From contig CAJINV010000004.1 in NCBI GenBank assembly GCA_905178155.1, forward strand, positions 10,647,655 through 10,711,654: a stretch of 64,000 nt of DNA. Direction: 5' to 3'. A program made the position numbers and the translations under genes. Within the stretch, counting starts at the first letter, position 1. Each line of letters starts with the position of its first letter. The stretch is from Amoebophrya sp. A120. Its lineage: Eukaryota; Protista; Dinoflagellata. The notes under the pieces are model-generated. The model ran no database searches, was not told the DNA's origin, and saw only the letters and a program-made list of their open reading frames with translations. Below are positions 12,801 through 57,102 of this stretch, in pieces.

Positions 12801-15391
12801 GAGGCGCCAAAAGTTCCCCGACAGAGGAATCTTCGTATCGAGAACAGAAAACTACAACTAGAAAGTCCGAGCCGTTTTCCACGACCCAAGCTGACCCCCA
12901 GTATCGTGCTGGTGAACCGACACAGCACAAAGGCTCAGCTACAAACCGAAGCCGAACGAAGGAAAACCGGAGAGAGCATCCTGGGGAGCAGAAACAGCAG
13001 AACAGAGCGGGAGCGGATGGAGAAGGGAGGGAAGGAAGAACTCCCACTGAGATGAACAAGGAAAAAGGAATCTCCGACCTGGAGTCTTCGGAAGACCGCG
13101 AGGCCGTGCAGACCGAGATCCCCATCGTCGCGCCGATAATCCCGCCCGCGCAGCTGATTGCGAGCAGCCACGAGGCGATCCTTGAGAAGGAGAACCAGCA
13201 GCCTGCGGGGACAGCGAAGTATGCAGCGGGGAGTCGTCGAGGTCGACGTGCACCTAGTACAACAACGGGAATAAAGCAGGAGGAGGGTCGTACACCAACC
13301 AGAAGCGGGACAACGCCTCCCGTGGTAGCACCACCACCGGCACAACCCAAGGAGCCAGCAAGAAAGCCGCCCCCCGAGGAACCGGCACCGCAGGCGAAAA
13401 CGGAGTTGATCGTGAAGGCCACGAGTGCCGGCCCGGTGTTTAAGGAGGCCGCGCCGTTCCGCGTTGCCTTGGACGTCCGCCACGACGCGCTCACCGGGCC
13501 ACTGTTCGGGCGAAAAGACCAGTCGCCAGCAACGCCTGTTTCGATCGGAGGGCGGGGTGGCGGGAGTAAGAGTGCTGGGGGTCTCGGAGGTGCTACGACG
13601 TCTTTATTGCAGACCCTGATCAACACTTGGATCGCGGGGGAGGGGCAGGAGAAAGAGAATGCGAAGATGACCAAGACGTCGCATGAAGAAGTTCTTGACC
13701 CTGCTTTCACTTCTACACACCGCAGCCACTCTGGTGCAGGAACCTCCGGGCGGCGGCCCGTGGCACCTGCTCGGGTGGGGCGCGCCTCCGTGGCCAAGAA
13801 GGCTGTGCAGGAGTACTTCTCTTCCAAGAAGAGAACTGCGAAAAATGGAAACAAGGCGAAGAAAACAACAAAAGAAGAAAATAAAAAATCAGAAGTAACG
13901 ATGATCAACGTGGTCCCCATCGTCCCCGATCCGCCTGTGTTTTTACAGCACCACGACGTAGGAGCAGCTGAGACACGACAAAAACAGACGTCTTCTACTA
14001 GCAGGAGGAGCGACAGCACCAGTGTTGGTCTATTGTCGCATCTGCTGCACCAGCACGACCAGAGAAATTATAAGCACCAGCATGAAGATCATCGGTTCCG
14101 AAGGGAGGAAAACACGGAGCGGACGCTGAGCGGAAGTGAATCTTATCAGGCTTTTTACAGAAGGAAAAATCATCCGCTGAAAATTTCTCAATCTGTCAGC
14201 AGTGCGGAGGCTGTACTGCAGCGCATGAAAACTACTAACCAGCGGAAGAGGAGGACGTCGGAGAAACGGAGAAAGTCTGGTGCCAGAGATTCATCGTTGT
14301 CGTCATCATCGTCTCGTCGGGGAAGGGGAAATGAAGATGAAGATGTCGTTTCAACAAGAACATCGTCACGGGGGAGCGGTGTTTCGTCTCCGCGCGGCGA
14401 GAGTGGTCAACAGCACAACCGCAAGGATAAAAAAGACACCAACGCTGCCACCCCCGGGAGGAGAAAATCAAGGTCACTTCGCGACAGCCCCGAGGAGCCC
14501 AAGACCGCGGTTGCGAAACGGTCGTACCAGACGTGGCAGGAGCTCTTGAAGAAGCAGCGGGACCGAAAGGCCAAGCAGGAACATCAAATCTTGAATGAGT
14601 ACCACAACCACGTTGCCATCGTTCGGGAGAAAACGAAGCAGACCGCCGCGGCGCAGCAGACAGAGCAGCAGAACCTGGAGAAGGAGCAGGAGCAGATCCG
14701 CCAGGAGGAGCTGCAGCAGGCGAAAAAGAAGAAAAAACTCGGGTTCGCGGAGACGCTGTTGGAAATTGGCCTGTTCGGGCAGAAGTTCGCGGTCATCATC
14801 GGATTCCAGACCTCGTACGTGATGGCCATCGAGATGTTCCCCACCAGTGTGCGCGCCACGGGCATGGCGGTGGCGCTGGCCGGGGGGCGCATCGGGGCGA
14901 TTGTCGCACCGTCGCTGTACGAAAAGATCCTGCTCGTGACGAACAGCCCCGCCGCGTTCTTTTTCTTTCTGATCGCGATGCTGGGAATCAACTTTTTCTT
15001 GCTCTTAGTCCTGCCCCTGCGGGAAACGGCAGGAAGGCCGCTGACCGAGACCGACAGCAGCAGCTCCGGGGCCAGCGAGCAGGAGGGACAGGAGGGAACG
15101 ATTGCTGGTGCCCTCGAGTCCTCCGATCCGTACGCGCCGAGGGTGATGCTGCTGGAGTTGCTGCACCCGGGCTACTACGAAAGCAAAATAAATCATGAAG
15201 ATCGACAATTTGTTCCAAGCGGTGACAAGAACGATCAAAACATCGCCGAGAAACCACGAAACGACGATTTTTATCAGAGGCAAAATGGAGGTACGACGGG
15301 GACCAGACCATCCACCCAAGACGAACCTGGTCACTCGCCTCTGCCGCCTCTCGCGCGACAGGCGGTGCCAGAGAAGAAAGGCGATGTGTGA
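9806..15391 (+). CDS. MFS transporter, SVOP/SV2-like (paralog 2)
   Basis: Exons ~9806-10093, 10353-10394, 10722-11107, 11323-12296, 12486-15391. Motifs WLMDGAE, GSVGDSLGRR, LPESPSWL, EMFPTSVRATG and LPLRET; clearly homologous to paralog 1; GT-AG intron at 11108-11322. Confidence 0.9.
10094..10347. mobile_element. Introner, family A
   Basis: TIR present; TSD GCGCG; the join gives DGA|ELILL. Confidence 0.95.
10395..10716. mobile_element. Introner, family B (AAAATCCCCCCTCCCCATAT TIR)
   Basis: TSD CGCAG; the join gives AVAQ|EWQF. Confidence 0.95.
12297..12480. mobile_element. Introner, degenerate TIR
   Basis: TATGCATTTGCAAAAGTATC...GATACTTTGCCTAGGATA; TSD CGCGC; frame restored. Confidence 0.85.
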
Positions 15392-16118
15392 GTTGTACAA
15401 CCGATGGACAAGAAGTTTCAATAGAAGAATACAGTTTTTCTGAACGATTTTTTGAGAATACACAAGACGCCTGATGATGTTTTTTCTGTACAATTAACAA
15501 GTTTCTGAGAATAAAGACGCCGTAGACCACTGTTGATCCAAGATTGGCTGAGAATAAAGACGAAAATAGTACAAAAAGGCCACTGCAGGAGCCACAGGTA
15601 GAAGAAGAACCTTCGTGGGAAAGAATCCATGATGATGGACCCTTCGTACTACGAGATTGTACATGGTTTTGAGCAGCCGGTGAATAAATCACTGCAATTT
15701 TCCTTCGGCAAAGGTACGACCAGGATCAGGTTCAGGTTTCTTCTGGCGCGAAAGGATGAAGAAAATTCTAAAACCCGATCTTCTTCAATAAATCAAGAGA
15801 TCTGCTGGTGGTGGTGATCAGCGAAAGAACAGGAACCTTAAACAAACCAGCCATGTTTTGTAATGTCCTGTTGTGCTTCTACCTCGACCACCGGTTCGGA
15901 TTCGGCGATACTCGTGAAAAACAAAAAAATTCTAGGACAACTAGTACCTGCAAAAAATGTTACGACCTTTACAACTTCCAGGCGACTTTTCTTGCTGTGT
16001 CATTTCGATGAAAAAGATTCGTGCCAACACTGCGCGAACGGGACACTATCCAGCTAGTAAATGAAAGTAGCTAAGTTACTAGACAGACACAGAAAATCAC
16101 GTACAGACCGACGACACA

Positions 16119-18239
16119 ATGGCCTACTCCAAGCGGGCGGGATCAGGCGACGCCGAAGACGACAACTTTTACTGCGAACTGGAACTGTGTCACGCGTCGA
16201 CCACCGCGCCCAACGAAGCCAGGTGCAACTCCGATGGAGATGAGGCCTCCAACGAGCCACACAGCACGAGTGAAAACGAGGCTGACCAACATGGAGGTAC
16301 ACGACCTGAAAGAACGGTGACTGAAGTTGTAGAGTCCTCTGCACGAACAGACGATGATCGTCAAGAAGACCCCTTGAAGCAGCTCCCAACCCTTTTGATC
16401 GGATACAGGAAGTCCGGGTATGCCATCCGGTTTAGTCCGAAAAGGCTAGTGATCACGAAGCGAGACCGGCGCGGGCGGTTGTTGCCAAGAATTGTCGAGT
16501 ATTGCAATGTGAACTTTTCCTCGAAAGCTGCTTTTTCCGATTGTGTCGCGGGTGGGAGTCACGAGAGAAGTTCTTGCAGCAGCAGTACTCGTCCACGGCC
16601 AACAAAGAGAAGTACAGAAGAGGAAACGCCAGCTACTGAGGGAGCCCGCGAACAAGGACCATTTCGCGGAAGTGCTTTCTGCGACTTTGAAAAGGCCTTG
16701 CTTGAGGAGAAGGTGCATGAAAAGAACTACGAAGCGGGAAATGCTGCACCTGGAGATCATGATGCGACACGGCGTCGAGACGGGTGGAACACAGTTGTAG
16801 ACGACGGCGTTCCCCCACCTCGCCCCTGGCTGTACAAACTGGTGCGCGACGGGCCGGACCCGGACAATTTCGGCCTGGATGCGGAGACCTACCCGCACGG
16901 GATCCTCGTCGCGAAACTCGACGAAGACACGGGCGAGTTTTGTCTCAAGGACAGATTGTTCATCCTCTCCGACGACAACCGAGTCGGAATTTTCGGCGAC
17001 TTTTCCCGAGAAGGGAAGTTGGAGCGCGGGAGGTATTGCACGATGGAGGGTTCATCTTGTGCTAGAGAAGATGAAGCAGAAGCTCAAGAACCTCAGGCTC
17101 CTGCTCCTCCGCTCATCGACGTTCTCACGGATTTGCGCCCGCTGTACGAGGAATTTCGCCGGTATGCTGTTCTGACGGAAGAGGAGCGTAGTCGAACTAC
17201 AACGGGGGCTGTGTCTAATTCCAAGTGTTCTTTCCTGTTTGACGCTTTCATCGCCGCGTTTCGACGGAATTTTCGAGACCGGATGGAAGCTTCGCTTTGC
17301 GGTTCGTACAAGAATTTTTATGAAAAAATGAAGGAAAGTTCTTGCCGCGGTGGTCTTCGCGACAAGAATATTAGCGGTGGAGAAATATTATTACCAGGGA
17401 ATAAAGACGGGTGTTTATTAGAATCACAATCCTTGTTCGGTGAGGACCTCACGACCGAAACGAGTCTGGGCCGGTTTCCACTCTTGCCCGACGCTTTTGA
17501 AGAACGAGCGGTTTGCGTCAAAGCGGCTGGATACAGCAAGTTTGACGATAACGATGTGGGTGGACAGCAGGAAGAAGCTAGCACTCCTTCTACGAAAGGC
17601 GAAGGTGCGGCAGATTCGGATGGCGGCAGCACAATGGTGAAAAAGAAGACTAGCCTCAAAAATTACGAAAACAATCCGGACCCTGGCGAGGGGCTATTCG
17701 CAAAGAAGCGGTTCGGCAAGGGCGAGCTGGTCGCTTTCTACAATGGGGTGCGGATCTCGCAGGCGGTGTGTGACGGCAGAGACTGGAAAGAAAACGGGAA
17801 CTGTGTAACTTTGTGGAAAGATGAGAAAGTAGATGCATCTTCATCCGACGGCGCTTCCCATGCGGCAACTTCATCTTCTACGCCAGGTGGCGGTGGCGGT
17901 GGCGTTGTGATCGATATCCCGGTGTCGCACAATCGACTGACCGACTACCGCGCCACCGTGGGGCACAAGGCGAACCACTCCCAGAAAAAGGTGAATGCGC
18001 GATATGGCCCGTACACCGCGCATCCCCGGTTCGGCGACATTGTGTGCATCCGCGCTGTGAAGGCGATTGGGGTGGGGGAGGAAGTGTTCTGCGACTACGG
18101 CTATGTGGAGAACAGCGGAGGAAAGGAAGTGACGAAGGAGAATAAAGCAGCTTCCGAAAAAGGAGAAAAGGTACCCTCACATTGCCGCGAGAAAGATGTC
18201 AACCAGACTGCACCGGACTGGTGGCACCCGGACTTGTGA
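16119..18239 (+). CDS. SET-domain lysine methyltransferase, SETD7/SET9-like
   Basis: GEGLFAKK, FYNGVR, YRATVGHKANHS, HPRFGDIVCIRAVKAI, EEVFCDYGY and terminal APDWW match the SETD7 SET/post-SET pattern. Intronless 706 aa. Confidence 0.85.
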   Translation: MAYSKRAGSGDAEDDNFYCELELCHASTTAPNEARCNSDGDEASNEPHSTSENEADQHGGTRPERTVTEVVESSARTDDDRQEDPLKQLPTLLIGYRKSGYAIRFSPKRLVITKRDRRGRLLPRIVEYCNVNFSSKAAFSDCVAGGSHERSSCSSSTRPRPTKRSTEEETPATEGAREQGPFRGSAFCDFEKALLEEKVHEKNYEAGNAAPGDHDATRRRDGWNTVVDDGVPPPRPWLYKLVRDGPDPDNFGLDAETYPHGILVAKLDEDTGEFCLKDRLFILSDDNRVGIFGDFSREGKLERGRYCTMEGSSCAREDEAEAQEPQAPAPPLIDVLTDLRPLYEEFRRYAVLTEEERSRTTTGAVSNSKCSFLFDAFIAAFRRNFRDRMEASLCGSYKNFYEKMKESSCRGGLRDKNISGGEILLPGNKDGCLLESQSLFGEDLTTETSLGRFPLLPDAFEERAVCVKAAGYSKFDDNDVGGQQEEASTPSTKGEGAADSDGGSTMVKKKTSLKNYENNPDPGEGLFAKKRFGKGELVAFYNGVRISQAVCDGRDWKENGNCVTLWKDEKVDASSSDGASHAATSSSTPGGGGGGVVIDIPVSHNRLTDYRATVGHKANHSQKKVNARYGPYTAHPRFGDIVCIRAVKAIGVGEEVFCDYGYVENSGGKEVTKENKAASEKGEKVPSHCREKDVNQTAPDWWHPDL

Positions 18240-26302: not shown

Positions 26303-26435
26303 GTGGCTCTTGTCGGCGAAAGACCAGTTGCACGAAAAGCAAAAGCAAAAGCTCCTGTGTGGAGATTAAGGGGAGTTCTATTTGTGCGCCGCGATAGTAT
26401 TTGTGTTCGTAACTGCGATGAGGACAACATGTTAA
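26303..26435 (+). repeat. ~125-bp direct repeat, copy 1
   Basis: CGAAAGACCAGT..GAAAAGCAAAAG.TCCTGTGTGGAGAT..GGGGAGTTCTATTTGT also occurs at ~31990-32120. Confidence 0.8.
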
Positions 26436-27259: not shown

Positions 27260-29950
27260 ATAGAAAAGAGACCCGAGGTCGCTTCCGAAATGCGAAACGC
27301 GAAAAGCGAAGACGGGAGCAGGACGAACCTAATACCCGAGTGCATATATAAGATAGAGAAAAGGCCCCGAACTCGTTCCGGAAATGCGAAACGCGAAAAG
27401 CGACGCAAGAGGGAAGCAGGGCAAGAAGACTCTCCTTCTTCCCCGAAGTGCTTACATACATGAATAGAAAAAGCCCGAGGCCCTCTCCGGAAATGCGAAA
27501 CGCGAAAAGCGAAAAAGGGAGCAGGAGAAAGCCAGCGCGCCCTGAAGTCGCTCAGTATGTGTATAAGACAAAAGCCCCGGGGCGGGCCCTTCCCGAATTC
27601 CGAAAAATGGAAGACAGCCGCGGGCGGAGTCAGACGAGAATATGCCAGGCGCGCCCCGGTGTGAGCGCACTATAGAGGAGGGAACCGGCGGGCGCCCGCC
27701 CCCGAATGGCGAATGAAACGCGAAAGGCCGGCAAAGGCAGAGGGGGCAAGAAAGCAGAAGCCGGGCGCCAGGCGGGCGCAACCTACGAAGCCCGGAGAAG
27801 GCCCGAAGGGCCGCAGCGCGCAAGCAGCCGCCGGCCTGGCGGCGAGCGACAACCCGCGCCCCCTGCCCGTAAGCCACGCAAACAAAAACGCCCGCCCGCG
27901 GAATTTTGGAAAACCCCCGCAGCGGGGAGGCCAAAATATACAAGAGAGTCGCCCTCACACCACGACGGCCCGGCGGCCGACGAAATCCAAGAGGCATATT
28001 GGGGGCGCCGCGGGGGGTTCTACGGAGGCGGAACCCCGAAGGCAGGCAGGAAGCCGACAGGACCCTCCCTCGGCGTCCCCTTCTCCGGAACGGAAACAGA
28101 CCAGCCACATCGCGCCCCCCCCCCCCCCCCCCCCCCCCCCCCTGCCGAGCCCGCTGGCTTGACGGGGGGGCCCTGGCCGAAAATGCAGCAGGCCCGCCTG
28201 ATGCGTGGCGCCCCCTCGCCCATTTTTTTTGTTTGATATGGCGCCGCGCCGCCGGCCCGGTCGGGTCGGTTCGTTTGGCCGGCTGCGACGCCCCGGGGCA
28301 TAGAATACCGCCCGGAAGGGGGAGCGATGAAGGCGGGCGCAGTTGTCGGGGTGGGCCTCGAGGTTTGTCGTAGATAGTCGGCCGGCAGGCTTCACGGAAA
28401 CAAGGCGAGCCGCCTCTGCAAAAGCGCCGCGCCTACCCTTTTTCAGGGGCACAAGCGCCACGAGCTAGGCAGCGTCACTATTGGCGCCCCAGCCCTTTTT
28501 TTTTTTTGCGCAGCGGCTACACGGCCTGGGTCGGACTACTTCCCTCGGCGCGTCCTTTTGTTCCCTTCACTTCTCTGTGCTTGCTTTATTTTTGAGAAGC
28601 CCAGACGAGGCACCGGAGCAGCCTCGCCGCGCCACCTGTGAGCCAACAGAAGCACGCAGCGCACCACCAGCAAGCCCACACCGGCGTCGCCAAATTGTTT
28701 GCAAACAGCCTCCATGCTAGATTGCGCAAGAAATTGCACGAAGCCGCGCGCATTTTCTGGCATGTGGGCTGACTGTGTGGGCGCTTGGGCTTCTTCGGCT
28801 TGGCCTGCCTGCCCGCTGGCAGGCCGGTTTGCCCCGGGGCGTCAAGGCGTAGTATCCAGCGGGCCCCGGCGCGTTGGGGCGGGTGTGTCTGGAAAGTCGT
28901 GCCTCCTCCTCCCTGTGCCAATCTATCTCCCGGGTTGGCAGCTTCTTCGCGTGGGCTTCCCCATTAGTTGGCCCGAGCAACAGCGGGAGTTGCCTCTGCA
29001 GCTCAAGACTGACGGAAACCAAAGCCATAGAAGAAAGGAACACACCGGAAGGCCCACGCGTGGCGCGTGTGCGACCGCCAGCCACCCCGCCAGGCCGGGC
29101 AGCTTCAGCGCGAAAAGGCACACCATAAAAAGGCAAAACCTCGTTGCGGCTTTTCGCTTCTCGCGGCTCGCGCTTATGGGCCTGGCTCCGGCTTTTTTTC
29201 ACTACGCAATATATTGAAAAACCGGGCAGCATGCTGGTGCGGCTTTTCGCTTTTCGATCGCGATCCGCACGGGCCTGCTTGCTTTACTCTCATTTCTGAC
29301 TTTCCCAACGTATTAGATGCGGCAGCCAGTCGCGCTCTTCTTTTCGCTTTTCGCGACTCACATCCACCGACCGGACTGCTTCCGCTTTCTCTATTGGCCT
29401 TCCTCTCTTAGCGTATTTGCTAAATTCGGCAGCCGTTGCGCCTTTTTTTTCGCTTTTCGCGATTCGCATCGGCCGGACTGCTTCCGCTTCCTCTACTACT
29501 GTTGTCCGCCTTTCTTAGCATATTAAATTTGGCAGCCGTTGACATTTTTTCGCTTTTCGCTTTTCGCGACTCACATCGACCGGACTGCTTCCGCTTTCTC
29601 TACTAGTCTCCCATTCTTGGCGTCTTAAATCCTGCAGCCCTTGCTCCTGTTATTTTTTTTTCGTTTTTCGCTTTTCGCGATTCGCATCGGCCGGACTGCT
29701 TCCGCTTCCTCTACTACTGTTGTCCGCCTTTCTTACCATATTGTTTAAATTTGGCAGCCGTTGGCATTTTTCCGCTTTTCGCTTTTCGCGATTCGCATCG
29801 ATCGGACTGCTTCCGCTCCCTCTACTACTATCTTCTTTCTCTGGCGTGTTAGATTTTTCGGCGCCGGACATTGCTTTTCTTTTTTTCGCTTTTCGCTTTT
29901 CGCGATTCGCATTGATCGGACTGCTTCCGCTTTCCCCACTCTTACTATTT
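27260..29950. repeat. Foldback-like GC-rich block with inverted subterminal tandem arrays
   Basis: Left: 3+ units with TGCGAAACGCGAAAAGCGA (~27290-27515). Right: ~6-7 units with TCGCTTTTCGCGATTCGCATC..CCGGACTGCTTCCGCT (~29240-29940). Poly-C tract at ~28115-28142. Confidence 0.7.
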
Positions 29951-29992
29951 TAGGAATTACGCATCTCATGCTGTCGCTTTCGTCTATTTCCT

Positions 29993-31989: not shown

Positions 31990-32120
31990 GTGGCCACTAA
32001 CGAAAGACCAGTCGCGCGAAAAGCAAAAGTTCCTGTGTGGAGATGAACGGGGGAGTTCTATTTGTCCGCCACGGTAGTAAGTATTTATTTTTGTTCCTAA
32101 CTTCTACAACGACATGTTAT
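31990..32120 (+). repeat. ~125-bp direct repeat, copy 2
   Basis: Diverged copy of 26303-26435. Confidence 0.8.
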
Positions 32121-32876
32121 CGTTACGAGCAGGGAACACGACACGCAGTCCTTGACCTCACATGAGATAAAATCGCATCAGTTCCTTCACTGCGTTGTCC
32201 GTCGTGAGCAGTTCTTTGCGTTGGAACCTTTTACGAGAAAGTGGGTTCTTTCACGCTCAGAAGACTGCTCTAAGAATTGGATCTCAGAGATGAAATGGGA
32301 GATCTTAGAGAAATGATAGTTCTTGGAGATGGTTGCGCAAGAAAATTTCTACAGGCAACGAACGGGTATAGGGTTTAGGCTAGATGATGATGCTGATGAT
32401 TGATGACCGATGTTGACAAAAATTCACTTGTTGATCAGAAAAGCGAGATCCATAAATCCGATGGAGTCGAAGATCAGGATCGTGCAGCTATTTAATGCGC
32501 ATGGTCTACTAGTTCTAGTTGCGCAGCCGCAGGCGCACACCAAGTTGCTGCTGCTGTTGGCTGCATCTAGCCACCTGTTTTGGTATAACTTGGAAGATCT
32601 TCAAAGTAAGTATTAAATTGGATCATCTAGAAGTATTCAGTCTGTGGTGATATGAAGATAGAAAGCCGCGCATTGGAATAGAAAATGACTAGGCTATAGC
32701 ACTTCCCACACATCAGCAAGGAAATTTCATTTTGACCACCTCAGCGACCAGCAAAGATTAGTTTTAGTATCAGACCCGTATAATTTTGATTTGTGCTGAG
32801 TGGACGTTTTAATAAAGTCAAACACAACGCAAGATAAGTACTATATCGAGTACAGCTTCCTCGCTCCACTTCGAAG

Positions 32877-35863
32877 ATGTTCAAGCGAGTGTTGGCAACG
32901 CAGGGCCTGGGCGCCGCGCACGACGACTCCGACTCGGAGGACATGACGGTGCGGCAAAAAACCCGCATGTACAACAAGTTCATTCCCGGCGCCGCACGGG
33001 GTCAGTCGTGTCAAGAAGATGATGATATTGTTAAGGCTTACAGAAATTAGTTCCTACCCTTGTTCCCGAAAGCTTAGGTTTGAAAAAAATGGAAACAAAC
33101 CGCGAGGGGGGTTTAGCTTGCACACTCTCGCAGTCGCTTGGAATGGCCGAAGGCCATGAACCCTGTGGCTGGGAAGCAGCCAGCGTGCGAGCTTGGGGGA
33201 GAATGGGCAGCCGTCTTCGGCGGGGCTGCCGCATTAGTATTTGATGTGGCGAAAACCCTTGGGAACAAATTGCTGGAAGTCACCTGCGTAAGATTTGTGG
33301 TCCGATCGGCAATACCTATTGGAGCACAAACCCTACGCAGGTGAGTTACGGATATTAGCTCTCAGGATTTCCGCCGCATCACGAAATTCTTGACGCAGCG
33401 AAGATCCTGGGAAATAATTTCTGTAAGCTACCTGCGTAAGATTTGTCTTCTCACTGGTAATACCGATCTGGGCACAAATCTTATGCAGGTGACTTACAGA
33501 AATTACTTCCCAGGATTTGCGTGCTGCGTCTCCAATCGCCTCACTTGGAAACGAGGATCATCAGTGTGTCCGAGTGTGGCGACTGGAAACGCAGTACGCA
33601 AATCCCAGGAGTGCATTTCTTTGAGGCACGAAAGCCGAAGCTGTAGGCGCGCGAGTTCTGCTGTGCTCTTAGGTAAGAAAGCTCGCGCAGCAGCTTTCCC
33701 CTCCTGGCCTTCTAGAAGCGTGCGTCTGAACACATGCACAGAAAGATCTACTTTTTCTTCTAGGAAGAAAACGCAAACTCTTCTAGAAGAAGAAGCGCCT
33801 TCTTCTAGAAGCTGCGTTTTCTAGAAGAAAGCAAAGCTGTGTCTTCTACAGGAAGACCAGCCTTCTAGAAGAAGACAAAACTTCGCGTCTTCTTCTAGAA
33901 GAGGACGCAGCTTCTTCTAGAAGAAGAAGCTGCCTTTTCTTCTAGGAACTCAGTTTCTAGAAGAAAACTTCTTCTTGTCCAAATGAGATGACTGCAGAAA
34001 AAACACGGAAATCCTGGGAACTCATTTCTGTAAGTCCGTTGCGTAGGGTTTGCACTCAGGTGGGGATTACCGATCGAAATACAGATCCTACGCAACCTAC
34101 TTACAGAAATGAGTTCCCAGGATCCCACATCCGAGAATTCTCGGATGTAAGTTCACATCCGAGAAATTTTCGAACGTGGACGGACATTCGAGAATTCCTC
34201 GGATTGCAGCTCACATCCGAGAACTTAGCGGATGTGAGCCGCAAGAGAACTTTCGCGCGCAAAGTGCCGAACTTTGGCGCCCTGCTCGTGAAAGTTCGAT
34301 CCGCGTGTCCAAATGGGGTGATTGCAGAAAAAACACGGAAATCCTGGGAACTAATTTCTGTAAGTTCATTCCCGGCGCCGCACGGGGCCAGTCGTGTCAA
34401 GAAGATGATAATAATGTTCTCAGCAAGGGCGAGGGCCAACATTCTCTTGATGTGGAAGATGAGCCAGTACATGTGATGAACAAGCGTGGAAACTACAGAG
34501 GTGATGAACAATCCAGTAGCTTTTGCTCCGAGGAGGAAGAGACCGACTCCGTGGACGAGGGGGATGATGTTGAAGAGCCTACTGGTGCGGCGGCGTTAAA
34601 GATGAAAATAAAGCTGCCCTCTGAAGAAGGTGAAGCCGCACCAGACGACGGTGGCCGAAAGGTTGTACCAAAGACCTCCACTGCGCGCTGTACTACCCGG
34701 CCTTCCATCGACAGTGACGACGACAGTGATTTTGACGACACGCCCGCGTGGCCCGCGGCGTGCGAGGTGGAGCGCAGCGCGAAGCCGCTGACCAGCAAGT
34801 TCCGGTGCGAGCTCTGCCCGGATAAGATTTTGAAGTCGCAAGCGGAGCTGGACGGGCACTTGCGGTCGAAAAAGCACCGGAAAGTGGTGGAGGAACTGGA
34901 GCGGGCGGCGAAGATGGGCTTCGCCAAGTATGAACAGGAACTACTGAAGAAGCAAGCGGCGGAGCAAAATTCAAATCACCTCCAAGGTGGTCGTGGGTCT
35001 GCGACGCGAAAGAATGCGACCGGAGATGAGGACAAGTCGCTCTTATCAAATGTAAAAATGTGTGGGTCTGGAAACTTGTGATGCTGTGTGGCGTATCATG
35101 AAGAGGCCACAATTGCTGGCTCAGCATGACAAGTTTCTGAGTGTCTAGGTGTTGCCTATTCTGCATGACAAACTGCGTTTCTGCATCACAGAAAAGTAGC
35201 GCTCTTGGGTAACGTGCACGACAGATTTAAGAGTCATGCCAGACAAGCATGACAAACATGCATTCTTCCAGACCCAGACATTTTTACAGTTGATAGCTTT
35301 GGTCCGAGGCGAAAAAGAAGCGGGAGGCGAAAAAGGAGAAGTATCTGGCGAAAAAGAGAGAGCAGAAGCGGAAGGGCCGCGCCGCGGCGGCGGTTTTGAA
35401 GGGCGGAGTCAAGAAGGACGATGGTCGTGAGAAGCAAGAGAATGTTGGGAAGAAAAAAGGTAACAAGAAAGGTCCGCCTGCGGAGAAAAAGAAGGAAGAT
35501 CAAGTTGACACTACAGCCACTTCTGCGGCGTTAATACGAGGCGAAAAAGGCAGTACAAAGGTGGACAAAAAGCAACATCCAAAAGGGAAAGCAGGTTCGG
35601 GAAGCAAATCGAATGGCGACGATACCAATATCCTTGCGACATCTACGGCATCTGCCGTTGTAGTAGAAGCGGAGCAAAAGGAGAAAAAAACATCATTGTC
35701 GGTGGCAGGGCGAAAGAAAAAGCCTGCTGCGAAGGTGAAAGCAGTAGAAGACGGCTCTGCGAAAATCGAAAACGGTGCGAAGACGGTGAAGAGCCGCGGG
35801 ACCAATGTGGTCGAGAAAAAAGTCGTGAAGAAGGTCGTCGGAAAGAAAAAGAAGCAAAAGTAA
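32877..35863 (+). CDS. C2H2 (U1/matrin/JAZ-type) zinc-finger protein with Lys-rich tail
   Basis: MFKRVLATQGLG... then exon 34365-35043 with FRCELCPDKILKSQAELDGHLRSKKH, then exon 35301-35863. Interrupted by a 1.33-kb cassette array and one introner. Confidence 0.7.
33037..34364. mobile_element. Composite TIR-cassette array with ~64-bp flanking duplication
   Basis: Perfect 18-bp outer IR CTTACAGAAATTAGTTCC/GGAACTAATTTCTGTAAG; three internal 65-bp linkers; exon sequence 32979-33036 repeated at 34365-34428. Confidence 0.85.
35044..35295. mobile_element. Introner, family A
   Basis: TIR present; flanks GCTCT/GCTTT; the join gives KSL|WSEAKK; near-identical to 49115-49373. Confidence 0.9.
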
Positions 35864-41744: not shown

Positions 41745-44700
41745 TACCCCGGGGTGGGACCCCTCAGTCCCTGGTACGCCTGCTGCGGCGTCGACGCCCA
41801 GCTCTGGAGTGAAGGGCCCCCCGCGGGGCGGCCGCCGGGTCACCCCGAGAGTACCGTCGGGAGCAACATTGGGGCTGCAGAAGGCGCAGAACCACCCCGG
41901 GCGGCGGAAGTCATAAATCTCCTGGCGAGCAGTGGAGGACGACCTGGGCCGACTGCGACGGAAGGACCTACTTTTGTCGCAGCTCCTGCCGCAGGAGTAC
42001 CAGCATCGTCTTCGTCCGCCGGGGCCTCGGTGGACCAGAGTGTTTTTAGCCCCGGCAGCAGCACGAGAACATCTTCACGCAGCGCACGGATAGCAGAAGG
42101 GCCCGTTCTATCCTCAGGAAAAACGTCCCCACACCAGAGTCAAGATGGGAAATCTGCTAGACAAATCAGCCAGCTTTCGCTGTTTCGCATGACAGGTTTA
42201 CTCTCATAGTGTAGTCCTGTCTCGCTAGTTCAGCAGCGTCACAGATCTAGCATATCATGCTGATTCTAGCATCACAAACTCCAAAACACAAATAGAAAAT
42301 GCTTCTCTCATGGGGCGCCGCATGGGAAACTTTTTTGGCATGCAGATTTGCATGACAACTCTGGGAGGGGGACGTTTTTCCGCAGGATGCGTTCGTGTTG
42401 AAGATCGCGTCGAGAATGGAGGTGATGACCCATTGCCTATCAAATGTAAAAATATCTGGGTCTGGAAAAATGCAACCTGTCATGCTAAATCTGAAGCGTG
42501 CAAAAATCTGTGTTGCATGATTACCAAAAGTCGTCCAGTTTTGACCAAGTCGGGAGGGAGTTTCTCATGCAGGATAGGCATGAGAGAGAGCGCACAGAAT
42601 CTGTCATGCCGGGTCCTGCATGCCAGGCCTCATGGGTCATGGAAAACCTGCATCACAAATGTTGCATTCTTCCAGACCCAGACACTTTTGCATTTGATAT
42701 TGCCAGCACGGCCAGAACAGGAGTACACCGCGCTATCTATCCCCGAGAAAAAAGCAGACAGGGCATACTTGCAATGCAATGAGAAATTATGATTAACAGC
42801 AAAATGAAAATCTGTCATGGGCGACCCCGTCACTCCCCATAGCATCGTGTTTAAGACATGCCATACAGATTTTTTCGTCTATTCATTTTTGCATATTATA
42901 CAAATATGCCCTGCCGGTCTTTTTCTGTGGGATACTATCATCTGCTGGAATTGCGGGTGAGGAATCTACTTCGGTTGGCACGACCTCGACGAAGTCGTCC
43001 GATTCGCGAAAGCTGGAGCCGAACGATGAAAACGAAAAACAAGACACGGCTGCTCAAGACGGTGATCGTCAAGATTCGTCAAGAGATGAACGGCAAAGCC
43101 GCAGGAGAGACGAGCAGGACATAGAAATCGCTCAGGTGTTGCAATGTCGACCGTAGTTGTACTCCGTAGTTTTCAGAGACTACATCAAGGTCATGATCTC
43201 GACTGTAGAAGTAACCCCACAGGTAATGTTAAGATACGCATGACAAGTTCATCTTTTGAGATTCTTAAACTGGACATGGATCTTCAAGGGAAACTTGTGT
43301 TAAGTTTGTGAAAGCGGCAGGGGGGGAGATTTGGATATTCCTCATACTTTTCACGCAAAACAAAAGACTCCGGCCCTCATAATTGCAGCATGCTATTGCA
43401 GCACCTGAGCGGGCTATATGACGCATCTTTTTCAAGCCAGAGGTCCGCCTTTTCGTCATCGGGGGCGGAATTGCAAGACGTAGAACGACAGCGGGTTGTG
43501 ACGCCGCAGTCAGAGCAAGCACTGGAACCGCTGCCGCAGCCGAATCATATGCCAGGAAAAATATGTAGTTTCAGTCTCAACGAATAACCTTTGCAGAGGA
43601 CTCAGCAACACAAATACGGTCAGCACGGAACACAGAATCTGTCATGCGTGAGACACAAGGGACGGATAGGGAAAGCATGTAATATGTAGTGAGGTCACCG
43701 AACGGTTCTAACCGGGGAGTTTTTTTGACAGCTCCCGTGAAAAACGACCGGCAGTTTTCAAGCGGCCGGAAGGCTTTTTTGACATAAAAAATTTTCAATT
43801 ATCAAGCGGCCGGGGCTTTGTTGTCAAACAAGCCCGGTCGAAAGCTATCGATTCGCACTGGATAAAACGACGCAGGGGAGCCGGCAAAAGGGGCGCCCTT
43901 CTGAGGCGCCCGCCGCCTTAGTTTCTGGCGATTTGGGGCGCCCAAAAAGGGGCGCGCAAAAAACGCGCCCAAAATCAGAACAGCGAAACAGCATGGCACG
44001 GCCGCGATTTCGGAGCATTTTGGGCGGCCGCGAAAGCGGCCGCCTTTTCGCCGTTTTCAGAGCCTGGGAAGCTTTGCAAAACGCGCTGGCGAGAAATATA
44101 AAAACGAAAAAAAGAAAAAGCGCGCCAGACGCGCAAAGCCAATCCGCATGCTATGGGCCCGATTTTTCGTCGCTTTTTGGGCGCCCCCCGTGGCGCCCGG
44201 ATCGGCCTCATAGCATGGGGGCTGGCTTTCGGAAAGGAATTTCGGAAATTTGCCAAAATTTGCGACGCTTATCAGGCGGCCGCCATACCGTGGGGCCTAA
44301 CGTTACTCACGGCGGTACGGCGGGCCCAGAAAAATCAAAGCCGCGACCAAGGCGGCGACCGGCAAGAAAACGCCCACGACCTCACTACCTCCGCCCCGGC
44401 GGCTATATTTGGTACAGAAGGCGCGTCCTCTCTCACCCGGCGAGCATGGCAGTATCGTGTTGAGACTGCGTACACAGTTTTTTTTTGCGACACATGAAGC
44501 ACCGTTTTCCACATCTGCAGTGGGAGAGACAAGGGCGTATCCAGTGTTATAAAAACTGTGTTGGTGTAGGTCTCTTGGGCTACTGAACACCATCAGTCAC
44601 AAATTCGCTCTGCATAAAAAGAAAAAAGACGCGTCATGCACAGGTAGTACAGCGGATTTAATTTTCCGTGAGAAGACGCTATCAAGGTTGTAGTATTCCC

Positions 44701-46134: not shown

Positions 46135-49100
46135 AGAACTTGAGGTGGACGACCCCGTTGATGTGGCGGAGTCGCGATTCTACTTGAAGTTCATGTGCAC
46201 GCTCGGAGCTTTCGTGCTCGTCATGGAGATCCTGACCGCGTTCAGCAACCCGGGAATCGTTATGCCTCGCAACTGCTCGTGTCTGGGTCTGGAACTACAC
46301 TGCAAGAATAAACTTCTCGACATTCATAATTATTCCAAGATTCGACCTGATCGACATTGTTCTAGACCCGGACATTATCCAAGAAAAAAACATTGTAGGT
46401 GTATACTTCTTTGGAGGAACAGCATTACAAATTTGTTTGGCATGACAGCAAAAACCTGTCATGCGCAGATAGTACGTGAAAACGCCCTTTAACAGACCCT
46501 ACGATGCATGCCAAGCATGACAGACGCAATCACTTTGCATGTTGCGCATCACAAACTTACAGTAACAGCGTTTTTTTCTTGGATAGACATCACATTTGCA
46601 GAGGATAACCCTGCCGCGCGCACCAAGGTCCGAGCGCCGCGGGCGACAGCTCTATCACCTGAAAAATTTTCGCTAAAGCGATGCCATATCTTATGTTTAT
46701 GGTCATGCATGAGCAAGTGGACTAGCCTGAGACATAAAGTTGTTCCACCAGCGCCAAGGGTCGGAGATGAAACACTTTTATCTTGGGTCAGGGTACTATA
46801 CCTAAGAATGACAAAAAATTTGGCTACTTATCGCATGCAAGATGACGAGACAAAAGTTTTCCTGGTTGATACACTGCCGCCAAGGCTGATGCTAGTCCGG
46901 GGGTGCGTGGTGAAGCAGAAATGGTGTCCGACTTGCGACATTTTCCGCCCGCCGCGGTCCAAGCACTTATGAGAATGCACAAGTTCGTCTTCCCCACCTC
47001 CTGTCATGTTGGAAGGCTGACAGCAGGGCTTCCCTAAGGAAATTAATCCTCCTCATGTGTCATGCAAAAGCCCACATCCTCCAGATCCAATGCTGTGCTC
47101 GCCTCTTGGCACTTTTTTTACACACGAAACCTTTCGCAAGTCCAAAGTCAAACAGGACTACATTTGAAGCGTAGAGCTGTTTTCATAAAAAGAGTGAATT
47201 ATCATGATTGCTGTTGCTTGTGATTGTGGATGTCATTTTGATGCTTGATATGGTGCTGATGACGGCAAATGACGGGGAGCGGAAGTTGTTCACTCTCATA
47301 GCAGTGTGCGTACTGCGACAACTGCGTCCTGCGCTTCGACCACCACTGTAAGTCTATCTATGGATGACGATATGTCTATGCTGGTGTTTCCGTTTATCTA
47401 TAGAAAAGAACAGAATTTTTTTGTCGCAGACGATAGCTACACCTGCCAGGCTGAATGTGAGTCGTAGGCTAGTTTCATAAGTGGTTTCACTTCATATCTG
47501 CGCATGACAAGTTTTTTGCTGTCATACCAATCTGATTTGTAAGGCTTTTCTTCCAAAAAAAGGATGATGTTTGTGATTCGCGTTTTGTGGCGAGATTTCT
47601 TCTCTGCTGCGAAACTTGCTTTGCAACTCGCAATACCTATGACCCAGAAAGTCGCAAAAAGGATTCAACAATTTGTCATGCTTTTTTGCCCTACCCCTAT
47701 AGAAACATCTCACGCGACACTCAGCAACAAGGCAAAAAATCAACTACATGCTACTTTCAGACCCAGACTTATTTGCAGTGGTGGATCTATAGACCCGTTG
47801 ATGTGCGTTTGTAGCAATTTGATTCACGTGTTCGTTGTATGTTGCGCTGTCATGAGAGAGCAGAAGTAATATGATTTATCTCCTGCTTCCACCTCAGGTA
47901 CTTGGCTCGGGAACTGCATTGGGCTCTTCAACTATCGCTTCTATCTTATCGCACGAAAAAACTTTACTTCCACTGTAAGAACGACTTGGCAGCGTTTGCA
48001 TCATAATTTTACCCTACATGCCGAATAAAGAATTACCCTGCGCTTTTGCTGAGGGAAAACACACCGACGAATCGATCCACTGTTTTGGACCAGAGGGTCC
48101 CAAGAAAACTAGACGTGACTGGTGAGTTCATGCTCACGTCCGGCCGGACGGGCGACACGCGACCACGGGTGGCGGCCGGCTTGCTGAAAAAGTAGATGAG
48201 GCGCGTCTGTAGCTCCTGCACGCTCTGCAGCGAAAGATGCGCCCGTCGCCCGCGTAGCCGGCCTCCCCGTTGACATACACCGCCCCCGGGCGGGAATGAG
48301 GCTACTTACAACATGCTGCTTCAATGAGCGTTTACACCACGACGCGCCGCTTGCGTTAGCATGCGTAGCTGCGGTGGTCCGTGCCCGGCGCCCGACGCCC
48401 GCACCGGACTAAGAAGAAAAAATAGGTCCCAACAAGCTCCTGACCATGCACTCAGGTCCTGCGTTCGGCCACAACTTTTTGAAACAAAGCTCGGAAACAA
48501 GGCTGCGACCTGCCCCCGGGCACCTGCCGTCCGTGACCTTCCCGGTCACGTCTAGGCCCTTTGTTATATTGCCAGGCATGTCGAGCAACAGAGCAGACAC
48601 TGCGTTGCACAAGTTTACTGTTTACTTATAGTACATGACAATAGTGAAGACGTTCAAGAAGTAGTTTTTGTTTGCGATAGATCTGGTGTTGATTTATTCC
48701 ACCACGTTGCTGCTCTCCCTGGTGCTCGTATCCGCGGTATCAAAAGGAAAAATCCCCCCACCCCATATCAAAAAGGAGTTTCTGATGCTGGATTTCAGTA
48801 CACAAACCAGATTTGTCTTGCAGTAGAGTACTGCAGGCCCATATCATGCCAATGTAGCGAGGTTTTGGCCTAGGCACTTAGCATGCGGAACGTCTCCGCT
48901 GTAGGCCCAACAGCATTACAAACCGCCTGCATAATGGGGCGGAGCCTCTGCCGTTGCTTTCTTGCAAGACAGACAATATCTGTGGTCACAAATCAGCATC
49001 ACAAATTCTCTGAGGCGTTCCTTTTCGATATGGGGAGGGGGGACTTTTCCCTTGAATACGCGGCCCACGTGATCACGCAGTCTGCACGGACAAAAAGCTT

Positions 49101-51043: not shown

Positions 51044-51322
51044 TATCCTGAGTAAAAACGTACCCACACCAGAGTCAGGAAGAGGATTTTGCAACACAAG
51101 CCTAGGAGTTTTGTGAGTCACGCATGACAAGTTGCGCTATGCAGTGTAGTGCAGGTTAGCAAGTGCAGCCGCATCACAGATTCATCTGCTCATCCTGTTC
51201 ACAGCATCACAAATTCCAAAACACGATTGGAAATGGCTCTCATGGGGATGCGCATTACAAGTTTTCCTGTCTTTGCAAATCTGCATTACAACTCTGGCGT
51301 GGGTACGTTTTTACTCAGGATA
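51044..51322. mobile_element. Introner-type element, family C
   Basis: ~32-bp near-perfect TIR TATCCTGAGTAAAAACGTACCCAC; TSD TCGGT. Confidence 0.9.
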
Positions 51323-51387: not shown

Positions 51388-51667
51388 TATCCTGAGTAAA
51401 AACGTACCCACACCAGAGTCAGGATGGGGAATCTGCTAGACAAATCAGCCAGCTTTGGTTGTTTGGCATGACAAGTTTGTCCGCGTAGTGTAGTGCTGTT
51501 TGAGCTAGTTTAGCAGCATTACAGATCTAGTATCTCGTGCTGATTGGAGCATGACAAATTTCAAAACCGCATTAGAAAACGCTTCTCATGGGGCTCTGCA
51601 TGAGAAACATTTTAAGCATACAGAGTTGCATGACAACTATGGTGTGGGTACGTTTTTACTCAGGATA
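51388..51667. mobile_element. Introner-type element, family C
   Basis: Same TIR; flanked by AATCCC on both sides (6 bp). Confidence 0.9.
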
Positions 51668-51721: not shown

Positions 51722-52536
51722 TATGTAGTGAGCAGGTCATCGAGCGGCTGTAACCGGGGAGTTTTTTTGACATCCATCTCGCAAAACGACCGGCAGTTTT
51801 GAAGTGGCCGGAAGCGTTTTTGGACATAAAAAGTTTTCAATTATCAAGCGGCTTTGGCTGTGTCGGCACCAAATCGCCAGCGGGTTCTATCGGTCGCCGC
51901 TTGAAAAAACGACGCAGGGGAGCCAGCGAAAGCGGCGCCCGTCTGAGGCGCCCACCGCCTCGGTTTCTGGCGGTTTGGGGTGCCCGAAAAGGGGTGCCAA
52001 AAAAATGCCAAGACGAGATAAAGCACGGATCCGCATGGTGTGGGCCCCATTTTTGCCCACTTTTTGAGGTCGCAAAGCCGGCCACCAAAATCATGCACTT
52101 GTAACGCGGTGAGCAGGGCAAAAAGTGCGACTTTTCAGCAAAAAAAAAATAAAAAAATGCGAACGCCGCCAAAATCTGAGGGCTAACCCACATGCTATGC
52201 GCCCGGTTTGGGGCGCCCAAGGGGCCGGCCCTGGCGGAGGCCCTTCGGGGGACATAGCATGTGGGCAAGCGTTTCGATTCTGGGGGCGGCAGGGGCGCGG
52301 CTTTTCAACAAAAAAAACCAAAGGGCGCGAATTTCGCCAAAAGCAGCAAGCTAGCCCGCATGATATAGGCCCGATTTGGGGGCCCATAGGGCCGACCCTG
52401 GCGGAGGCCCTTGCGGGGCCATAGCGTGCGGGAAAAAGTTTCGTCTCTGAAAAGAGAAAAAACCCCGGCGCCGTCCAGTCAAAAAATCCCGGCGCGACCT
52501 CACTATCTACCTCCGCGGACGCGGCTATTCTTGGTA
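51722..52536 (+). mobile_element. Non-autonomous Helentron/Helitron2-like repeat, copy 2
   Basis: Begins TATGTAGTGAG; ends GACCTCACTA..CCGCGGACGCGG..TTGGTA; the first ~300 bp are clearly homologous to copy 1. Confidence 0.65.
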
Positions 52537-54478: not shown

Positions 54479-54886
54479 TTGGTGACGGTGGTGCTGCCCT
54501 TCAATATTACTTATATCTAACTAAAAAATGAAAGAGAGTTGCTCATGCTGCCATGCGCTTTTGCCGTGCTAAGTAATCCTGACTCTTGGTCTTGACAGAC
54601 AGAAATACACACCCACTCGCACTTTCATCTTGCGAAAATTTGTTTGCACGCCCGCACGGTCTACTTATTTGGTGACACTTTTATAGAACTACTCTACGGG
54701 TTGTCGATGTCGTCGTGTTAGCCACAGATTTTGCAATTGGTCTGCCGAAACGAAAAAAACAGGTTCTTTGAAAATATAGTATGTTTTATTTTATTACAGC
54801 AGAATCGGCACAACTTCCACTTACCAAATTCGATATCAATGAACACAGGAAACGTCGCTCTGAAGATGAACTACAAGTGCGATTAT

Positions 54887-55665
54887 CTGGTAACCAAATG
54901 CGTGCGCGCGCGATATTGCTTAGCAAACGCAGCGCGAAGGCAGTTGCCGTTACCATATAGGGCAACCGCCGGGAGGCGTGAAGGTCAGGGAAATGGCCAG
55001 AAATGAAGCGGGAGAAGGGAAAAAAAGCGGACCAGATGGGAAAATGGCCAGGACGTCAAAAATGTTGCCAAAACGGCAGAAGCCAAGCGGGAGAAGGTGA
55101 AAAAAGAGCATTTTTGCGGTTTGGCCCACTTGATATCGGAAAAAGAGACGGACTATTTTTTGCTCCGCCCGCTGGCCAGCTGCGTTGGAGAAGCAGGCCC
55201 GCGACCTGTTCGGAAGCCTTGGGCCGCTTCGTAACTGGAAAAAGTTGGGAAAAAATGGCAAAAAGTCGCGGCATAACGTGGGTGGGAGCAATCGTCGGAT
55301 TTTGTCCAGATCACCCGGGCCGCTTGGAAAATGGGAAAAGAGGAAAAATCTTGCAAAAGCGCAATCCTTCCGCAGGCTTCAAAACTGCCAGTCAGCTGAG
55401 GGCGGTGAAAATGTGCAGAGCCCTTCGGCCGACTAAAAACCTGAAAAAAGAGCGAAAATTAAAAAAAATCGAGAACCCTCGGCAGGCTGACAAACTGGCC
55501 GCCGAGGGCGGTCCGGCGGGCGCGTGGTCGCGCCATACCGTCGGGATTGTGAAAAAAAAAACCGCACTAGAGGCGGGCGGAGGGATGTCACAAAATCCCC
55601 ATTTGCCCTGGATTGTGGGCACAAATCCGGCACCTCCGCCGCATCTGAAATGGCCGATTTTGATG
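54887..55665. mobile_element. GC-rich insertion flanked by a ~49-bp duplication
   Basis: CGCTCTGAAGATGAACTACAAGTGCGATTAT on both sides; hairpins near both ends. Confidence 0.65.
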
Positions 55666-55739
55666 GTTAGCCACAGAAAACGCCGCTCTGAAGATGAACT
55701 ACAAGTGCGATTATACGACAGAAATGAAGCTATTTTATC

Positions 55740-56611
55740 GACACATCTACCCTGGTAGATTCTTTTCGTGGAGTGACTGGAAGGAGTTCCTCCGGTCTAG
55801 TTTGTTCATGGGCTGGCAGATCCCTAGAAGCTAATGCCTGGAGGTACTGGACTCCCTTGCCCTGCGAGAGGGGCGGGAGGGTGCCTCCCGTTCGCGGTGT
55901 TTGGAGTGCGTTTTGAGCTGTGAGACGCAGCTATTTTTGTCTCTACACGCAGGTTTACATGTTCCGCTAGAGTGCAGAGCATTGCCTAGAGGGCAGTCCC
56001 AGCGGGGACAGTTTGCGTTTGCCGATGCTTCGCTAGAGTGCGGAGCATTGCCTAGAGGGCAGCCCCAGCGGGGGCAGTTTGCGTTTGCCGATGCTTCGCT
56101 AGAGTGCGGAGCATTGCCTAGAGGGCAGTCCCAGTGGGGACAGTTATTTGCGTTCGCCGAAGCTTCGCTAGAGTGCGAGACATCTGTCTTGAGGGCAGTC
56201 CCAGAGTGACAGGTTTGCGCATGCTCGCCATGAGGCCGGCCCCAACGGAGGCGGTGTCGCGGTGTTTTGCTACAAGGCCAGTTTCCGCGGGGAGTAGTTT
56301 TGCGGGCATTTGTTTTGGGGAAAGATGACATCTTGATCTTGTGGCCGGGGTCGCCACTGTCCGGCGGCGTCGTTTGGCGCATTATTTCCGTTCTCTTTGG
56401 ACGATATCGATATGCCTTCTGTCCTCGATCTCGCCTTGCTTTGGGAACAGGGGTCGTTTGCCACTGGCGGTACCCATACCCAATCCGTTACCCTTGCGAA
56501 CTTGTTCCCATGCTTTGGCTGGGGTTCTTGGTGTCCAATTTGTTCGCCCTCTGTTCCCTTAGCAGGGCGGGGTCGAGGATCCTCCTCGTCAATTACGAAG
56601 TGCAATCAGCT
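55740..56611. mobile_element. Insertion flanked by a ~60-bp duplication, containing a 66-bp tandem repeat (~55965-56210)
   Basis: 55680-55739 is repeated at 56612-56671; unit CGCTAGAGTGCGGAGCATTGCCTAGAGGGCAG... occurs about 3.5 times. Confidence 0.7.
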
Positions 56612-56828
56612 ACGTCGCTCTGAAGATGAACTACAAGTGCGATTATACGACAGAAATGAAGCTATTTTATCAAGTGCAATAGATCTGTCTGGGTCCTCTG
56701 GAAAAATGCAGTTGGCTGTCATGCGGAATCTGCGTGACGCTGACCGCCCAGAAGCTGCTCTAGCATGCAGGCAATGGCACCACAGGTCCTCGCTTCGAGG
56801 AGGTTCCTCAGTGCCTATCCGGCACGAG

Positions 56829-57102
56829 TATCAAATGCAAAAATGTCTGGGTCTGGAAGAATGCGCGATTTGTCATGCAGCTTTGATTCCATGACCATGA
56901 CCCATGAGGTCTGGAATGCAGCACCTAGCATGACAGATTCTGTGCGATCTCTCTCATGCCTATCCTGCGTGACAAACTCCCTCCCGACTTGTGCAAAACT
57001 GGACGACCTTTGGTAATCCTGCAACACAGATTTTTGCATGCTTGAGATTTAGCATGACAAGTTGCATTCTTCCAGACCACCCAGACATTTTTACAATCCA
57101 TA
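56829..57102. mobile_element. Introner, family A, nested inside another family-A-like element (56668-57261)
   Basis: TSD ACGAG; interior is the reverse complement of 6596-6864. Confidence 0.9.

Follow-up and report, generated by a model that had tools for sequence, protein, structure and literature searches.

Introners of Amoebophrya are already known. The element ends published for strain A120 consist of TAT, seven bases and a run of A (PMC7789003), and across the 50 rows covered of the 58 in the A120 introner table, automated assignment gives duplications of 2-6 bp and manual notes give 5 and 8-9 bp (PMC12130899). Polarella introners make 3-8-nt duplications (10.1101/2020.10.14.339549). Among insertion sequences, the minicircle junction of IS2 holds a 1-bp spacer (PMC3299598), and repeats of 5 bp are typical of insertions by the IS2 subgroup (PMC3299598, PMC10045372). 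The eukaryotic relatives IS3EU/GingerRoot carry TA..TA ends and usually a 6-bp duplication (PMC10045372), A120 family 38 is tabulated with TA/TA ends and 5 bp (PMC12130899), and IS30 forms tandem dimers with abutted ends (PMC9333248). In this study, we analysed a stretch of 64,000 nt of Amoebophrya sp. A120 (assembly GCA_905178155.1, contig CAJINV010000004.1, positions 10,647,655 to 10,711,654), hereafter the window, in which an array of four cassettes and three linkers interrupts the coding sequence of a C2H2 zinc-finger protein. The array proves to be real: it is a composite introner that is spliced, is held together by junctions of unusual, fixed length, and lies within a long duplication of its flank.

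The four cassettes, bounded by terminal inverted repeats (TIRs), measure 243, 83, 542 and 265 bp (cassettes 1-4), and the three self-complementary linkers measure exactly 65 bp each; both sets were recovered by sequence comparison and motif search where the initial annotation had placed them (Table 1). The 18-bp end motif that it had proposed was present at six of the eight ends with zero or one mismatch and at a seventh with three; the eighth, the left end of cassette 2, is more degenerate. Outside the array, the motif gave two weak single matches only in the window. The outer ends of the array, 33037-33054 and 34347-34364, are complementary at 18 of 18 positions. The cassette bodies differ, the longest direct stretch common to two of them being 60-65 bp, and linker 1, cassette 2 and linker 2 together form one 253-bp inverted repeat. 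No Pfam match was obtained in the four open reading frames (ORFs) of the array. The array is likely a chain of four repeated non-coding inverted-repeat modules, that is, of non-autonomous DNA transposons fused end to end.

The modules are multicopy. Contigs from six of 12 sequencing runs were compared, the contig joints reported being those among the matches listed. In run X1, array-internal contigs showed depths of 86, 155 and 164, the last belonging to a contig identical to linker 2, as against about 28 for the unique flanks, and other loci also have array ends. These observations bear out the earlier claim that the array consists of multicopy mobile elements, and the depths, which are a rough guide only, suggest about 3-6 near-identical copies. 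One contig joins the left part of cassette 4 (to 34312) to the right part of cassette 3 (from 33788), another joins cassette 3 (33688) to cassette 4 (34237), and others hold a local duplication (33546 back to 33472) and a deletion into linker 3 (33971 to 34058). Both halves of cassette 1 continue into other sequence elsewhere, as seen from loose contig ends. A 4069-nt contig of X5, likely an RNA run (depth 21.6), ends in the left end of the array behind a different flank; it may represent a relative that is long or autonomous and is expressed. In X9, a metatranscriptome from another study that covered only 41 nt of the compared stretch, no empty site was seen.

In likely transcript assemblies, the array is removed in frame. 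Two joints, 33029-34374 and 35042-35300, are present in one contig of X3 (depth 46), and the first of them appears in X5 as a loose contig end. The spliced frame translates exactly to P0001, a protein of 461 aa; the exon following the array, which holds the Pfam domains zf-met and zf-C2H2_jaz, is 100% identical to P0001, named by its source as a protein of Amoebophrya sp. A120. That the array acts as an in-frame intron, as had been supposed, is thus borne out by the joint in X3 and X5 (likely RNA) and by its product; the boundaries proposed for it, GC at 33036 and AG at 34364, are in frame but that joint is absent from the contigs, and the one seen is non-canonical. The predicted stem of the intron ends starts 5 nt inside the 5' end and stops 7 nt inside the 3' end, so that the cut falls just outside the stem by these distances and disregards the boundaries of the duplication. 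We infer that the terminal stem may guide the cut, which agrees with the hairpin model of PMC7789003. The first 9 nt of the right copy are removed together with the intron, and the mRNA retains 42 nt twice, giving a 14-residue protein repeat with 12 identities. Since three homologues, one of them from Amoebophrya sp. AT5.2, carry the motif NKF(I/V)(P/A)GA..G once, the peptide repeat is derived. A splice that follows the terminal stem and leaves such a repeat might contribute to the rapid evolution of proteins that has been reported in this lineage. As an internal control in the same gene, the neighbouring 252-bp element at 35044 is lost with exactly one 5-bp duplication (257 nt), which is the usual pattern; its removal, as element plus one duplication, takes place at TT..TT ends.

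The duplication around the array is long. Positions 32979-33032 and 34365-34418 are identical at 51 of 54 positions without a gap, and the duplicated exon segment described by the initial annotation is real; its length of 64 bp is not confirmed, as it depends on introducing a 6-bp gap that is followed by a match of 4 nt, AAGG. The six bases TTAAGG (33031-33036) recur elsewhere: the 4069-nt contig of X5 matches 33031-33060 and a 164-nt contig of X9 matches 33031-33071, both perfectly and behind one different flank that is not in the window, and another X3 contig starts matching at 33028 behind yet another flank. Six bases would be shared by chance at about 1/4096 per locus if these loci were unrelated. 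TTAAGG, being common to other loci, therefore probably travels with the element and probably belongs to its end, on which the intron can be read as starting; with TTAAGG assigned to the element, the duplication would comprise 52-57 bp. Short homologies occur at both joints, where the assignment of AAG (32976-32978) and TT (33031-33032) is ambiguous: TT can be placed on either side of the left joint and AAG on either side of the right one, and the T after the right-hand AAG also equals the first base of linkers 1 and 3. No short (5-6-bp) target duplication was found around the array. An assembly artefact is disfavoured, because single-copy X1 contigs span 32000-33057 and 34336-35071 with zero differences (depths 28.9 and 27.7), so that both junctions and both copies are present in a separate short-read assembly; X1 may be the source sample of the window and hence not a second strain.

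At a second site of the window, 54844-56671, an exon-like segment with the open frame ...RRSEDELQVRL... is present three times, its copies being separated by two unrelated inserts; the repeats measure 43 and 56-60 bp. The last 9 nt of insert 2 equal the host sequence just past the insertion point. The inserts, of 785 and about 872 bp, are without clear inverted ends. The public protein over this site, P0002, is no test of its splicing because it begins inside an insert. Long, variable duplications (40-60 bp) thus occur three times in 64 kb, and such duplications would escape scans for short ones. A helical-turn ladder for the lengths 43, 54 and 60 was considered and dropped, since the ambiguity of the joints lets almost any length fit.

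The linkers themselves share a fixed anatomy. Each consists of 32+1+32 bp, and, read outward from the centre, the consensus of the six halves is TACC-N8-CACAAATCTTACGCAGGTGA, followed by the inner motif; four of the six begin with TACC (TA) at the centre, and within the halves CTTAC is repeated, its second occurrence lying 13 bp outside the inner one. In linker 1 the CCGATC half is found to the left of the centre, in linkers 2 and 3 to the right. Compared with shuffles, the linker DNA folds with z of -8.8, -6.0 and -2.5, against +0.4 for the right flank copy, and the 113-bp linker-centred palindromes fold very strongly (z -6.4, -11.7, -11.8). Because these three palindromes align without gaps, with 68 of 113 columns invariant, the equal linker length points to common descent and not to three independent events. 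Two diverged relatives elsewhere also hold the linker length without gaps, with 8 differences in one and 36 over 189 nt in the other. Differing from one another at 16-29 of 65 positions, the linkers do not represent fresh copies of a single site; their identity to the flank duplication, 16-19 of 65 positions, is at the chance level and does not support the suggestion that one duplicated site was simply re-targeted. The arms of junction 3 have five private changes in common, compared with none for the ends of cassette 2 and one for those of cassette 3 (P about 0.003 for random placement after 15 pairs, in a test that ignores relatedness). Judging from this anatomy, the true element ends may lie at the linker centres, and mirror-matched private changes in junction 3 would then be expected because both tips would come from one element.

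Table 1. Features of the composite introner and its host gene, in window coordinates.
Feature	Position	Strand	Remark
Host coding exon upstream of the array (C2H2 zinc-finger protein, 461 aa)	32877..33029	+	Spliced translation identical to P0001
Left copy of duplicated exon segment	32979..33032	+	X1 contig, no differences
Non-canonical intron, 1344 nt, in frame	33030..34373 (equally 33031-34374)	+	Ends GT..CC or TT..CG
TTAAGG, probably outer tip of the composite's left end	33031..33036	+	Common to another locus (X5, X9 contigs)
Cassette 1	33037..33279	.	Chimera or internal deletion, break at 33232/33234; right end degenerate
Linker 1	33280..33344	.	Palindrome of 32+1+32, centre 33312; orientation opposite to that of linkers 2 and 3
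Cassette 2	33345..33427	.	83 bp, itself palindromic; 147 bp counting both linker halves
Linker 2	33428..33492	.	Centre 33460 (GGTA-A-TACC)
Cassette 3	33493..34034	.	Internal TTCTAGAA palindromic repeats
Linker 3	34035..34099	.	Centre 34067; five mirror-symmetric private changes across the centre
Cassette 4	34100..34364	.	Right end 93% identical to cassette 3 right end over 60 bp
Right, intact copy of duplicated exon segment	34365..34418 (34428 in the gapped alignment of the initial annotation)	+	
Host coding exon downstream of the array	34374..35042	+	X3 contig
Unrelated TA..TA miniature element, 5-bp duplication, same gene	35044..35295	.	Joint 35042-35300; 257-nt intron; internal control
Last host coding exon	35300..35863	+	

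With moderate confidence, we propose that a chain of non-autonomous TIR elements moved as a composite introner, that repair made the duplication of about 54 bp, and that the chain is spliced out in frame in a non-canonical way. Each linker would represent two 32-bp outer tips of terminal repeats of at least 56 bp, starting with TA as do the other elements of this genome that have TA..TA ends and 5-bp duplications. The two tips would be abutted over one base, an arrangement that matches the circle or dimer junctions of IS2/IS30. Recombination among related bodies, to which the chimeric contigs partly attest, may have shuffled the cassettes, and the chain likely moved as a composite because near-identical modules recur in the genome. 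Its entry into the exon would have been non-concerted, with repair at 2-4-nt homologies (TT on the left, AAG/AAGT on the right) duplicating about 54 bp, a length that would be incidental. In the transcript, the outermost repeats may pair as an RNA stem, the observed cut lying a few bases outside; the duplication would buffer the lost host bases, with the protein retaining the 14-residue repeat.

Several observations weigh against this proposal. Its main weakness is that the outer ends are without the 32-bp tip, as the right end stops at the inner motif and the left one 6 bp outside it, and these positions would be better explained by a cut at the inner motif. The window holds no TACC..GGTA copy that stands by itself, two of the six linker halves begin with TG or TC instead of TA, and no transposase or recombinase was detected with Pfam in the 41 ORFs scanned of 218 listed, the genes here being split by introns. 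Hairpin-driven homogenisation would yield identical mirror changes at junction 3, and the covariation control was not significant, with five two-sided changes, 42 of 500 shuffles as high, and only three sequences. AAGG at the offset in question is met at 1.8% of window positions, which counts for the duplication of 64 bp. With regard to splicing, X3 and X5 belong to one sample whose RNA origin is only guessed, and the annotation of P0001 may rest on data identical to the transcript contigs. The raw RNA runs X10 and X11 gave zero reads on the gene, and they are no test of the joint because the 91 reads of X10 lay solely on the 35044 element.

Because neither outer end keeps the 32-bp tip, two other explanations retain some weight. 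In one, which we hold to be unlikely, the true ends are CTTACAG/CTGTAAG and a transposase joins them to positions about 64-65 bp apart, the 65-bp palindrome being a dedicated junction or target that is re-used to build arrays. Neither outer end does extend more than 6 bp beyond the inner motif, a length of 64 bp, one below the linker, follows from the gapped alignment with the AAGG match that chance supplies so seldom, and the linker length is held without gaps in two diverged relatives. Stepwise long duplications are known for DDE enzymes, at about 4/15/25 bp in IS481EU and up to 29 bp in IS1202 (PMC10045372), and IS1549/IS1634 make long variable ones of 8-514 bp (PMC2266710). However, with TTAAGG shared by other loci the 64-bp length could be kept only by assuming a 6-bp deletion together with a target preference, the linkers are unrelated to the flank duplication, and the lengths at the second site differ, though its inserts are unrelated. 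Among 50 of the 58 A120 introner families no duplication above 9 bp is given in the published table, which derives from an automated scan that may miss long ones. The staggered insertion of about 65 bp suggested by the initial annotation is weakened by the shared TTAAGG and by the 43- and 56-60-bp repeats of the second site. A broader version, likewise doubtful, supposes a eukaryotic transposon with a 55-65-bp stagger and a dedicated 65-bp palindromic junction, whose chains are removed by hairpin-guided splicing that retains part of the duplication, so that every insertion would add a peptide repeat to a protein; if true, this stagger would be more than double the length of about 25 bp that is the largest we found published for a eukaryotic DDE duplication. 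The other explanation, slightly less likely in our estimation, takes as the mobile or unstable unit a linker-centred palindrome of at least 113 bp, the array having grown within an older element by hairpin-driven inverted and tandem duplication with no special junction chemistry. It agrees with the very strong folding of these palindromes, with the 253-bp inverted repeat, with the local duplications and deletions in contigs, and with palindromic introner families of A120 that are known by size only (105-160 bp; PMC12130899), but it leaves the TA at a fixed centre and the constant 65 bp in relatives diverged by 19% unexplained, and the 113-bp units are without a flanking short duplication.

It may also be supposed that the exon segment was duplicated earlier, by slippage or repair, and that the place where the two copies meet was later the site at which a composite element of the ordinary kind inserted, or decayed. 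The 9 nt of downstream host repeated by insert 2 of the second site fit a duplication spanning the site, and the two copies at the array already differ at 3 of 54 positions; against this, an insertion exactly at the joint is needed, the array lacks a short flanking duplication, and the homologues are single-copy only, with no intermediate among them, so that we consider this course of events very unlikely. Integron attC core sites are RYYYAAC and GTTRRRY, and site-specific recombination does not duplicate the flank. Imperfect hairpins between unlike cassettes recall the integron-like system, with attC-like hairpins and a tyrosine recombinase, that the initial annotation had offered as its alternative. 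Neither core gave a match in the three linkers plus 24 nt on each side, on both strands; linker 1 runs in the opposite orientation to linkers 2 and 3, the cassettes are bounded by inverted ends of their own and gave no Pfam match, and the flank duplication is not expected from such recombination, which together reduce the integron-like system to a negligible probability.

Other elements were also noticed in the window. The window is rich in TA..TA miniature elements, of which ten of 250-310 bp lie at 4564-4820, 4877-5138, 6596-6864, 10094-10347, 35044-35295, 42438-42699, 51044-51322, 51388-51667, 56829-57102 and 62139-62445. A perfect 5-bp duplication was recorded in seven of the ten checked, the remaining three displaying one 5-bp repeat with the right end reset, one match of 4/5 and one 6-bp repeat, and their ends fit those published for A120. 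A 1.15-kb element at 46407-47560 has inverted ends of about 75 bp (83%), no obvious short duplication and no Pfam match in two overlapping ORFs. Tandem repeats at 29243-29951, 27260-27526, 52127-52449 and 55959-56204 have periods of about 111, 95-100, 170 and 66 bp, and poly-C tracts lie near 28116 and 30131. An 85-bp stretch is present twice with 82% identity, 5.7 kb apart (26317-26399 and 32001-32079), the latter copy ending at a GT donor-like site. Pfam matches to pieces of sugar-transporter (MFS) paralogues, a SET-domain protein and Utp14 were obtained in 5582-15388, 16086-18236 and 58605-60095.

Searches beyond the window gave no further member of the family. The two array end motifs were not found in 13 of the 14 supplements of PMC12130899, which seem to be without family sequences, and because no sequences were found there the array family is not matched to a row of that table. 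In metagenomes, the 24-letter end pattern had zero matches and the junction pattern was met at 118 loci or more, with the 65-bp gap in one among the matches listed; three scans of viral contigs gave 27, 48 and 0 pattern matches. None of 193 metagenome and viral loci matched the array by BLAST at E 1e-3, and the pattern matches are taken as chance or unrelated repeats. Several short palindromic repeat families of metagenome contigs, unrelated to one another and without similarity to the array, carry the 10-bp arms on which the junction pattern was built. In Rfam, 34 weak matches to hairpins were obtained, every one of them under the gathering score. An array of this type is undescribed in the literature searched, though subscription papers and figure-only supplements (e.g. 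Figs S19-S25 of PMC7789003) could hold one, and the accessible part of PMC11282704 contains nothing on long duplications.

Comparatively, casposons and CRISPR-type integration also build tandem arrays, by re-insertion at a duplicated site (PMC10359463), but in the casposon the spacer between units corresponds to the duplicated target, with a length of 14 bp in M. mazei (PMC10359463), whereas the linkers of the array are unrelated to the flank duplication. KolobokP is likewise a eukaryotic composite-like DNA transposon with multimers and shows TTAA plus two purines at its left end (PMC9587614); unlike it, the array has TTAA on the left but CATT on the right, yielded no transposase or nuclease, and is without identical long direct repeats, those of KolobokP being terminal and about 450 or 660 bp. 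IS481EU, IS1202, IS1634 and IS1549 resemble the array in duplications far above the usual 2-11 bp (PMC10045372, PMC2266710). IS481EU differs from it in its TGT..ACA ends and in reaching about 25 bp, the array does not match TG..CA ends with duplications of about 4-6, 15 or 25 bp (IS481EU/IS1202), and IS1634/IS1549 are prokaryotic; palindromic linkers or intron behaviour are not described for any of the four in the accessible parts of PMC10045372 and PMC2266710.

IS3EU/GingerRoot and A120 family 38 share with the array the TA at the linker centres, if these are true ends, and with its neighbours the TA..TA ends and 5-bp duplications. TA occurs in four of the six linker halves, the left outer end could start with TA at 33032, and the right outer end has none. 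The array differs from IS3EU/GingerRoot in that no transposase was found, the 5-6-bp duplication and the outer tips are missing, and a 1-bp spacer lies between the units; no report of end-to-end junctions for these elements or for family 38 was found in the literature searched. IS2 and IS30 offer inverted repeats abutted over a 1-bp spacer, tandem dimers and insertion beside their own ends, as proposed for the array, but they are bacterial, autonomous and established biochemically, and the geometry proposed for the array is deduced from its sequence. The fixed head-to-tail junctions may be fossil circle or dimer intermediates, which, if true, would suggest copy-out-paste-in by a eukaryotic IS3-like enzyme.

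The introners of Amoebophrya (PMC7789003, PMC12130899) agree with the array in organism, as judged from protein identity, and in the repeated insertion of non-coding inverted-repeat elements into exons. Both are removed at non-GT-AG sites near a hairpin (GT..CC in the array, from the runs guessed to be RNA), and the inverted repeats of 8-20 nt that pair published intron ends correspond to the 18 of 18 complementary positions and predicted terminal stem observed here. On the other hand, the published direct repeats, as far as the accessible text gives them, measure 3-5 nt (8-9 in one family), compared with 52-57 or 64 bp at the array, partly kept in the mRNA; at 1344 nt, the array exceeds the 40-1000-bp range analysed in 2021 (PMC7789003), and, in contrast to these introners, it is a chain of four modules held together by fixed 65-bp junctions.

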